64,000 nucleotides of DNA from assembly GCA_045612805.1 (NCBI GenBank), contig JAZKZR010000007.1, positions 20,591 to 84,590 on the forward strand. The letters are read 5' to 3'. This stretch comes from Candidatus Enterousia sp. Its GTDB lineage: Bacteria; Pseudomonadota; Alphaproteobacteria; Rs-D84. The first letter of the stretch is position 1; each line of letters starts with the position of its first letter. This document shows, in pieces, positions 20,574 to 20,696 of this stretch. A model generated the notes under the pieces. That model saw only the letters and a program-made list of their open reading frames with translations. It was not told where the DNA came from and ran no database searches. The translations under genes and the position numbers were made by a program.

Positions 20574-20591
20574 TGTTATTTTCCTTTTTAT

Positions 20592-20668
20592 AAAAAATGA
20601 CGCCAAACGGGGCGTCCATCCGAATCCCGTTTATGTTTTTTCTAAAATTATATTTGCATTCGTTTCAT
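20592..20668 (-). promoter_or_regulatory. Candidate metG attenuator with leader peptide MKRMQI
   Basis: Minus strand: AGAGAG RBS, ATG AAA CGA ATG CAA ATA TAA (20668-20648); AAACGGG (20632-20626) complementary to CCCGTTT (20611-20605); terminator GACGCC-ccgttt-GGCGTC-ATTTTTT (20616-20592). Confidence 0.55.
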
Positions 20669-20696
20669 TTTTAACTCTCTGGAACCTTGTGGCCCG

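Follow-up and report, generated by a model that had tools for sequence, protein, structure and literature searches.

A short conserved leader ahead of metG in Candidatus Enterousia and related gut Alphaproteobacteria: a candidate transcription attenuator with a methionine mini-ORF

The metG gene for methionyl-tRNA synthetase (MetRS) lies on the minus strand of the stretch analysed here, a 64,000-nucleotide window of contig JAZKZR010000007.1 from Candidatus Enterousia sp. (hereafter the window), and is preceded by a short leader. The metG ATG is at 20573 and, as read from the sequence, its product begins with MGKKYLITSALPYVNNNLHIGH. In order of transcription the leader comprises a purine-rich run resembling a Shine-Dalgarno (SD) sequence, a mini open reading frame (mini-ORF) of six codons, an A/U-rich spacer and two overlapping hairpins, namely an antiterminator-like helix (A) and an intrinsic terminator (T) whose T-run ends at 20592, 18 nt from the metG ATG (Table 1). 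A first-pass annotation of the same DNA had listed the AGAGAG run, the mini-ORF, a 15-nt gap, an AAACGGG arm, the terminator and the 18-nt gap as parts of a Met-codon attenuator, and on re-reading the sequence each lay where it had been placed. The interval it had delimited (20574-20680) covers no more than the 3' portion of the leader, which is longer and has a promoter-like site further upstream at 20875-20847.

Leaders were collected from species-representative genomes, two metagenome contigs and contigs encoding MetRS homologues 59-98% identical to that of the window. The set holds 35 loci with 31 distinct sequences; counts below are over the 31 distinct leaders unless said otherwise, and single loci are given as L numbers. 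A loose pattern scan of metagenomes contributed 2 true leaders among the at least 120 matches listed. By the scan of MetRS proteins, the window and the other loci with the leader come from uncultured Alphaproteobacteria of rumen and gut, which carry the label 'Candidatus Enterousia' or just Alphaproteobacteria, and the best MetRS match is 98% identical. A profile search of 1.5 Mb of related loci found the leader as a single copy per locus, each time directly before metG. Any one sequence could carry a short ORF and a hairpin by chance; judged by its conservation across 35 loci, the leader is a real element and not a chance feature, and it is certainly functional.

All 31 leaders follow one mini-ORF plan, in which a start codon and an optional second codon precede CGA ATG, a pair of sense codons and the stop. 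The start codon is ATG throughout, except for GTG in L007. Codon 2 is AAA, AAG, ATG or missing, and is gained or lost only as a 3-nt unit, and the stop alternates between TAA and TAG, always exactly two codons past the internal ATG. The encoded peptides (MKRMQI, MRMQN, MRMQK, MKRMCE, MMRMYN, MMRMYK, MKRMKI and MRMYN) are accompanied by synonymous changes (AAA to AAG in L208, CAA to CAG in L193, ATA to ATT and TAT to TAC). In-frame starts and stops, 3-nt indels and synonymous changes together indicate that the mini-ORF is maintained as a reading frame, and it is probably translated. The first-pass annotation had leaned on this ORF and its internal Met codon in a single genome, and both proved to be conserved.

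The hexamer CGAATG is invariant in all 31 leaders. In the metG genes of the same 31 genomes, used as a control, 15 N-terminal codons specify an invariant amino acid and none of the 15 has an invariant third base; the two invariant arginines of the MetRS N-terminus each use three or four third bases. CGA accounts for 47 of 492 Arg codons (9.6%) in the genome of the window. Because CGAATG is fixed while third positions of metG vary, selection appears to act on the exact codon pair or hexamer, beyond the Arg-Met dipeptide that it encodes. Methionine takes up 2-3 of the 5-6 codons, against 2.9% genome-wide, without a run comparable to the IIII of the ileS leader described below. The spacer is free in sequence, yet the distance from the stop codon to (A/G)CGGG is kept at 15-19 nt, with a conserved U-Y-U-U at its start; the constancy of this length, and of the two-codon distance between Met codon and stop, suggests that ORF and hairpin are physically linked.

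The same nucleotides can also be read as a promoter, since the site TTAAAA-16-TATAAT, a 10/12 match that overlaps the ORF, might start transcription in the spacer and leave the ORF incidental. In relatives, codon 6, the stop and the following T often resemble a -10 element (TATAAT, TACAAT, AATAAT), but several have poor -10 hexamers (ACTAAT, ACTAGT) and the -35 element is not conserved (e.g. L008, L201). Moreover, the most conserved bases, CGAATG, would sit in the promoter spacer, where conservation is unexpected, and promoter-like sites numbered 6 against 4.8 expected from shuffled sequence. We therefore regard an incidental ORF within a promoter as very unlikely.

The consensus structure of the leaders computed with RNAalifold is terminator T, with double changes at 3 of its 7 pairs. 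Compensatory variants of the T stem are GGGUGCC/GGCACCC (L031) and GGACACC/GGUGUCC (L209), and L022 and L026 have compensatory stem changes as well. Helix A is formed by AAACGGG and CCCGUUU. Counted from its GGG/CCC end, pairs 1-4 never vary. Pair 5 occurs as A-U in 27 sequences, as G·U in 3 and as G-C in 1, and pair 7 as A-U in 19, as U·G in 8 and as U-A in 3; three mismatches are seen at pair 6, which otherwise takes the form A-U, G·U or U·G. Pairs 5, 6 and 7 all include changes on both sides. In all, 96% of the cells of helix A are paired, compared with 33-58% after a shift of the partner strand by one or two bases. Sixteen leaders were folded. With transcripts cut after the 3' arm of A, the minimum free energy (MFE) structure was helix A in all but L193 and L201 (14 of 16); with full leaders it was T in all but L004 and L016, which kept helix A (again 14 of 16). 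Helix A takes the last base of T's 5' arm (C20611) and the whole T loop, so T cannot form while A stands, and a pseudoknot with both helices would need a 1-nt linker over a 7-bp stem; A and T therefore exclude each other. Such exclusivity had been proposed from the window alone, and it gains from the covariation in A (A-U / G·U / G-C) and from the predicted folding of A before T's 3' arm is made.

The mini-ORF and helix A are gained or lost together. The terminator loop is conserved only in the presence of the ACGGG arm: in L019, where both the ORF and that arm are lost, the terminator stem is unchanged but its loop differs. A terminator without ORF and helix A is all that is left in L027 and L014. 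The leader is missing at loci with an inverted tRNA or with metG's own promoter (L203/L204), and more distant clades have plain promoters before metG.

In relatives, a tRNA-Val(GAC) with its own promoter lies directly upstream of leader and metG in the same orientation, and there is no room for a promoter between T and metG. The essential metG must therefore be expressed by read-through of T, and its transcript, leader included, must come from the tRNA-Val promoter. In the window the intact tRNA-Val(GAC) lies elsewhere and only its last 16-19 nt are left by metG. The two copies of the tRNA 3' end (20720-20738 and 29431-29449) form a direct repeat, 18/19 identical and 8,711 bp apart, which indicates that an island was inserted in the tRNA gene and cut metG off from its usual promoter. 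The island encodes a 558-aa protein adjoining the tRNA (weak DUF6538 match), a 277-aa ORF, a serine recombinase/DNA invertase and a 1283-aa internally repetitive protein without a Pfam match. A near-consensus, outward-facing promoter-like site of the island likely now drives leader and metG in this genome, in place of the tRNA-Val promoter. L014 likewise has just a tRNA 3' remnant ahead of metG and, with the island of the window, makes this tRNA seem a recurrent insertion site.

Several further observations concern the surroundings of the leader. In L207 (region 940-1100), whose MetRS is 86% identical, the tRNA upstream of the leader is tRNA-Val(UAC), not tRNA-Val(GAC), and the neighbouring genes differ, so that the leader was either moved or retained along with metG. 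Between tRNA-Val and leader there are short palindromic inserts in variable number that resemble repetitive extragenic palindromes (L001-L023; about 20697-20722 in the window), for example CCACACTTCGC...GCTTCGTGTGG and GAGTGTC.CGCCGTAGC..., and the gap from tRNA-Val to mini-ORF ranges from 18 to >150 nt. Public MetRS models of 549-588 aa (P0011, P0035 and others; L201, L210) run 8-47 codons upstream, through leader and terminator; with the true metG start being the ATG after the T-run, these extended models look like annotation artefacts.

The dependence on an upstream tRNA gene also accommodates a reading without methionine sensing, in which T is the terminator of a strong tRNA-Val unit, A sets a fixed leak into metG, and the mini-ORF merely keeps the leader unfolded or protected, or reports general translation capacity. 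The leader occurs only where tRNA-Val is directly upstream and co-oriented, and loci whose tRNA is inverted or that have their own promoter lack it (L203/L204, L014), A forms by default in the predicted co-transcriptional order, terminators seem weaker where ORF and A are lacking (interrupted U-run in L019, short stem in L027) and no structure connects the position of a ribosome with A, all of which speaks for such constitutive tuning. It leaves unexplained, however, why the rare CGA and the AUG are invariant and fixed two codons before the stop despite saturated synonymous sites, why the ORF-to-A spacing stays within 15-19 nt although the spacer is free to vary in sequence, and why a second type of leader ORF with CGA ATG ATG precedes metG in L021/L029; cognate-codon logic is, besides, plainly in use at the neighbouring ileS. 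On balance constitutive tuning seems rather unlikely to us.

None of the 4227 Rfam families reached its gathering threshold in the window, and none gave a convincing match at E<=10 in 20400-21100. The best match there was at chance level (DUF2815 RNA, E=0.39, with 20.4 bits where the gathering score is 41.2). This absence of Rfam matches ruled out a T-box, a SAM riboswitch and any other described leader. The entire 270-nt upstream region was also considered as one structured RNA and dismissed, its fold z-score being only -0.94; the G+C-rich part of that region consists of the island end, the tRNA-Val remnant and a native palindromic trailer.

The absence of Rfam matches at E<=10 also bears on the possibility that the block read here as an ORF is untranslated and that a ligand or protein (e.g. 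MetRS or another RNA-binding factor) chooses between A and T. CGAAUG is invariant at the nucleotide level beyond the needs of amino-acid coding and can pair with AUUCG beside the A arm (p ~0.98 in window-type leaders), which would form an H-type pseudoknot with A; GAAU:AUUC pairing is also found in the L021-type leader. The SD-like sequences of several relatives are weak and, by geometry, a ribosome would have no direct grip on A. A switch made of RNA only would, however, not account for in-frame ATG/GTG starts, indels of 3 nt only, TAA/TAG stops and synonymous changes, which fit a translated frame. The AUUC partner is absent in L201/L205/L207/L211 though CGAATG is invariant there, no conserved partner exists for positions C7 and G12 of the hexamer, and the nearby ileS has an unmistakable peptide leader. 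We consider an untranslated RNA switch unlikely.

The reading that we favour, with a probability that we put at roughly 0.55, is a ribosome-dependent transcription attenuator that couples read-through into metG to the supply of Met-charged tRNA. The transcript would start at the tRNA-Val promoter in relatives, and probably at the island-borne promoter in this genome, and would present in turn the 5-6 codon ORF, the unstructured A/U-rich spacer and the two mutually exclusive hairpins. Hairpin A (UAAACGGG : CCCGUUUG) would form once its 3' arm exits the polymerase, using the loop and top of T; with A formed, T would be blocked and the polymerase would continue into metG, whereas failure of A would allow T to form and transcription to end 18 nt ahead of metG. 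A ribosome on the mini-ORF would need fMet-tRNA to initiate and Met-tRNA to pass CGA-AUG, so the product of MetRS would be a natural signal. The minority codon CGA may make the next AUG a sensitive 'hungry' codon, and the signal would be whether the ribosome passes the internal AUG and arrives at the stop codon. Under Met shortage the ribosome would be absent or stuck at the AUG, far from A, which would leave A free and metG presumably on; under Met plenty ribosomes would finish the ORF and T would probably be favoured. Because the predicted folding order makes A the default, 'on unless the ribosome completes the ORF' is likelier than 'off unless stalled', and with such default-on wiring shortages of initiator and elongator tRNA would act in the same direction. 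Translation of the mini-ORF, Met-tRNA as the signal, the direction of control and, above all, the way in which a ribosome ending 13-17 nt upstream of A disfavours A are the parts of this scheme that we infer from the sequence. A completed ORF might disfavour A through a post-termination ribosome caught by the SD-like GGGA of the A arm, through contact with a paused polymerase or in another way.

Several findings weigh against this attenuator. The base of helix A lies 13-17 nt past the stop codon, and (A/G)CGGG 15-19 nt past it. A ribosome with a stop codon in its A site shields about 9-12 nt downstream, as known from footprints and toeprints, and a ribosome waiting at AUG4 sits 9 nt further back than one at the stop; neither would thus mask A directly. 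No conserved anti-antiterminator was found, the ACGGG arm being paired to the same degree in the naked leader (0.38) and in shuffled sequence (0.38). Upstream, the folds predicted range from -1.3 to -6.1 kcal/mol, which is weak, and they are inconsistent among relatives. With no anti-antiterminator and a stop too far from A, the link of ribosome position and RNA fold found in classical trp-type attenuation is missing here. There is, in addition, only a single internal Met sensor codon (two in the MMRM variants), and the SD-like sequences ahead of the mini-ORF are weak, distant or absent in several relatives; other relatives have AGAG/AGGA/GAGA-like runs 5-14 nt before it. Finally, CGAATG could be invariant through an RNA contact instead of codon identity. 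The classical attenuation implied by the first-pass annotation, in which a ribosome at the Met or stop codon decides the fold, therefore does not hold as such, and its proposal of an attenuator at metG is partly supported, being right in outline and unproven in mechanism.

Other ways of connecting the mini-ORF with the hairpins were considered and rejected. Pairing of CGAAU with AUUCG (P1) is strong in window-type leaders but missing in L201/L207/L211 despite kept CGAATG, and sterically it would stack on A and not compete with it, which likewise counts against the attenuator. Pairing of the post-stop UCUU with GGGA is predicted in some leaders only (L004, L009, L011, L201/L205) and, if real, would act in the physiologically wrong direction. 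A hungry-codon frameshift through T finds the +1 or +2 frame open in many leaders, with no consistent frame, and neither is open through T in L004, L006, L018, L022 and L025. A second ORF from an NUG in the A loop is conceivable in 28 of 31 leaders, but the ORF lengths vary from 3 to >80 codons, and the UG often belongs to the terminator stem. Complementarity of ACGGGAUUCG to the T-arm of tRNA-Met, in its E. coli sequence, was dropped; neither the window nor the loci contain a tRNA-Met gene.

A more specific version of the attenuator, which we offer as a tentative and rather doubtful possibility, is a minimal leader wired in reverse. In it the CGA-AUG pair would replace the usual codon run, A would be the default, and delivery of a ribosome to the stop codon would switch metG off, for example if a post-termination ribosome or 30S subunit slid along the A/U-rich spacer onto the SD-like GGGA.

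Cognate-codon control is more easily recognised at ileS, which lies on the plus strand of the window. Its leader (MMNKKTIIIIR*) is a textbook cognate-codon leader; relatives have MNKKTIIIIK* or MKTNTIIIIK*, with the four tandem Ile codons conserved (L201, L203, L205), and the first hairpin begins 3 nt past the stop. The metG leader has neither tandem cognate codons nor such a closely placed hairpin. The pheST genes of the window have no Phe-codon leader, which sets them apart from E. coli pheST, and all that the rplT-pheS gap contains is the hairpin ATGGGGCC...GACCCCAT, whose T-rich tail is weak. The first-pass expectation of cognate-codon leaders at other aminoacyl-tRNA synthetase (aaRS) genes thus held for ileS and failed for pheST, and its extension across such genes was over-generalised from two of the three aaRS loci in the window. 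In L021 and L029, two metagenome-assembled genomes from termite gut, a different leader stands before metG, with an 18-codon ORF ending in ...(S/A)-R-M-M-R-x-x-R-N*. Its sole strongly conserved block, TCGAATGATGCGC...GCGCAAyTGATT, contains CGA ATG ATG and also includes a small G+C hairpin. In these two leaders the ORF is not followed by an obvious intrinsic terminator.

Table 1. Positions of the features discussed (window coordinates, except for loci L021 and L029).
Feature	Position	Strand	Basis or remark
metG, methionyl-tRNA synthetase, 541 aa, monomeric short form	18948-20573	minus	Pfam tRNA-synt_1g and Anticodon_3; relatives are named methionine--tRNA ligase in the sources
Shine-Dalgarno of metG, AAGGA	20582-20586	minus	sequence
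Intrinsic terminator T	GACGCC 20616-20611 / loop CCGTTT 20610-20605 / GGCGTC 20604-20599 / A + T6 20598-20592	minus	terminator scan
Helix A (antiterminator), 3' arm CCCGTTT	20605-20611	minus	final base of T's 5' arm plus entire T loop
Helix A (antiterminator), 5' arm U-AAACGGG	20626-20633 (AAACGGG 20632-20626)	minus	covariation with 3' arm
A/U-rich spacer, 15 nt, without predicted structure	20633-20647	minus	sequence
Mini-ORF ATG AAA CGA ATG CAA ATA TAA (MKRMQI*)	20668-20648	minus	sequence
Mini-ORF codons	CGA 20662-20660; internal ATG 20659-20657; stop 20650-20648	minus	
Promoter-like site TTAAAA-16-TATAAT	20674-20647		overlaps mini-ORF
Purine-rich Shine-Dalgarno-like AGAGAG	20675-20680	minus	sequence; 6 nt ahead of mini-ORF start
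tRNA-Val(GAC) 3'-end remnant (…CCAATACCACCCACCA)	20720-20738	minus	direct repeat of 29431-29449; att-like island boundary
Promoter-like site TTGACA-17-TATACT, 11/12, facing metG	20847-20875	minus	consensus scan; inside island's right end
8.7-kb island in tRNA-Val(GAC)	20720-29507		four genes between direct repeats
Serine recombinase/DNA invertase of island	22748-23305		
Intact tRNA-Val(GAC)	29431-29507		
rplT-pheS gap	4256-4337	plus	
ileS leader ATG ATG AAC AAA AAA ACA ATC ATT ATT ATA AGA TAA (MMNKKTIIIIR*)	9205-9240	plus	
ileS leader terminator CGGGCGC-AGAT-GCGCCCG-T7	9267-9291	plus	
ileS	9320-12364	plus	
TraG/VirD4-type type IV secretion coupling protein	61676-63922	minus	
Leader ORF before metG in L021 and L029	L021:2860-2915; L029:1735-1790 (approx.)		

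At the right end of the window, the gene of the TraG/VirD4-type coupling protein (Table 1) suggests a conjugative element.

Control by leader peptides is a textbook form of attenuation in biosynthetic operons and has been described for a few synthetase genes. Met is the awkward case, because MetRS also charges the initiator tRNA. In Caulobacter crescentus, ribosome profiling placed leader coding sequences at ileS and trpS (PMC4117421), which means that such ORFs had been reported before at aaRS genes of Alphaproteobacteria; these, like the ileS and metG leaders of the window, are small ORFs before aaRS genes. The ileS leader of the window is in keeping with that evidence and shows cognate-codon leaders to be in use in this lineage. 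The same paper reports no metG leader, the word 'metG' having 0 occurrences in it. Predicted attenuators also exist for trpS and leuS of Streptomyces and for pheST of Gammaproteobacteria (PMC1262725), and the ileS leader agrees with these too. With classical aaRS attenuators of this kind (E. coli pheST/pheM; Streptomyces trpS and leuS) the metG leader shares a short ORF containing the cognate codon, followed by antiterminator and terminator before the gene, and neither needs a protein or ligand sensor. It differs from them in an ORF of only 5-6 codons, in one invariant sensor codon after the rare CGA in place of a codon run, in the lack of a 1:2 hairpin (anti-antiterminator or pause hairpin), in a stop codon 13-17 nt short of the antiterminator, in an antiterminator that pairs with the terminator loop and not with the terminator 5' arm, and in an amino acid that is needed by the initiator tRNA too.

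In Firmicutes the usual RNA control of metG/metS is the T-box riboswitch, whose signal is tRNA charging. The gene class and the output, antiterminator versus terminator just before the gene, are the same as in the present case; unlike a T-box, however, the metG leader has no Rfam match, Stem I or specifier loop, and its conserved block is a reading frame. The UGG in the A loop of the window (UGGA) is not conserved in relatives. The trpL leader of Sinorhizobium has 14 codons with consecutive Trp codons. It resembles the metG leader as a case of ribosome-dependent attenuation by a small upstream ORF in the same bacterial class (PMC6614838), and it differs in controlling a biosynthetic operon, not an aaRS gene, and in its classical alternative hairpins.

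Leaders as short as that of metG are also found among inducible resistance genes. The minimal msrDL and ermDL leaders (msrDL has 6 codons; minimal ErmDL is MRLR) sense antibiotics via contacts of nascent peptide and drug, and they control resistance genes. The ORF sizes are comparable, in both cases a ribosome on a tiny ORF would control a downstream terminator, and alternatives such as A and T follow the metG ORF of 5-6 codons, so one may ask whether it too responds to a drug or stress, with an inhibitor that stalls the ribosome and thereby induces the downstream gene. That gene, however, is the housekeeping metG in 35 of 35 loci and not a resistance gene, and the peptide is not conserved after R-M (QI, QN, QK, CE, YN, YK, KI) and contains no known arrest motif; we hold drug sensing of the erm/msrD type to be very improbable.

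A search of the full-text literature found no report of leader-peptide attenuation or of a Met-codon leader at metG. We read the metG leader as a new minimal form of leader-peptide attenuator. A conserved minimal Met leader would show that Met-tRNA supply can be read with one codon, and CGA-AUG would illustrate from nature how a rare codon can be positioned to make the codon after it more sensitive. Should the reverse-wired version be true, this would be the smallest amino-acid-sensing leader known, wired opposite to trp, in which a shortage of fMet-tRNA or of Met-tRNA would both give 'on', and the paradox that Met starvation also blocks initiation would be removed. Given the non-classical geometry, either the position of the ribosome is coupled to RNA folding in a new way or the sensor is something else entirely. 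For the organisms themselves, the leader accounts for the over-extended public MetRS gene models, and it serves as a marker of a tRNA-Val-metG operon within a gut lineage that is large and uncultured.

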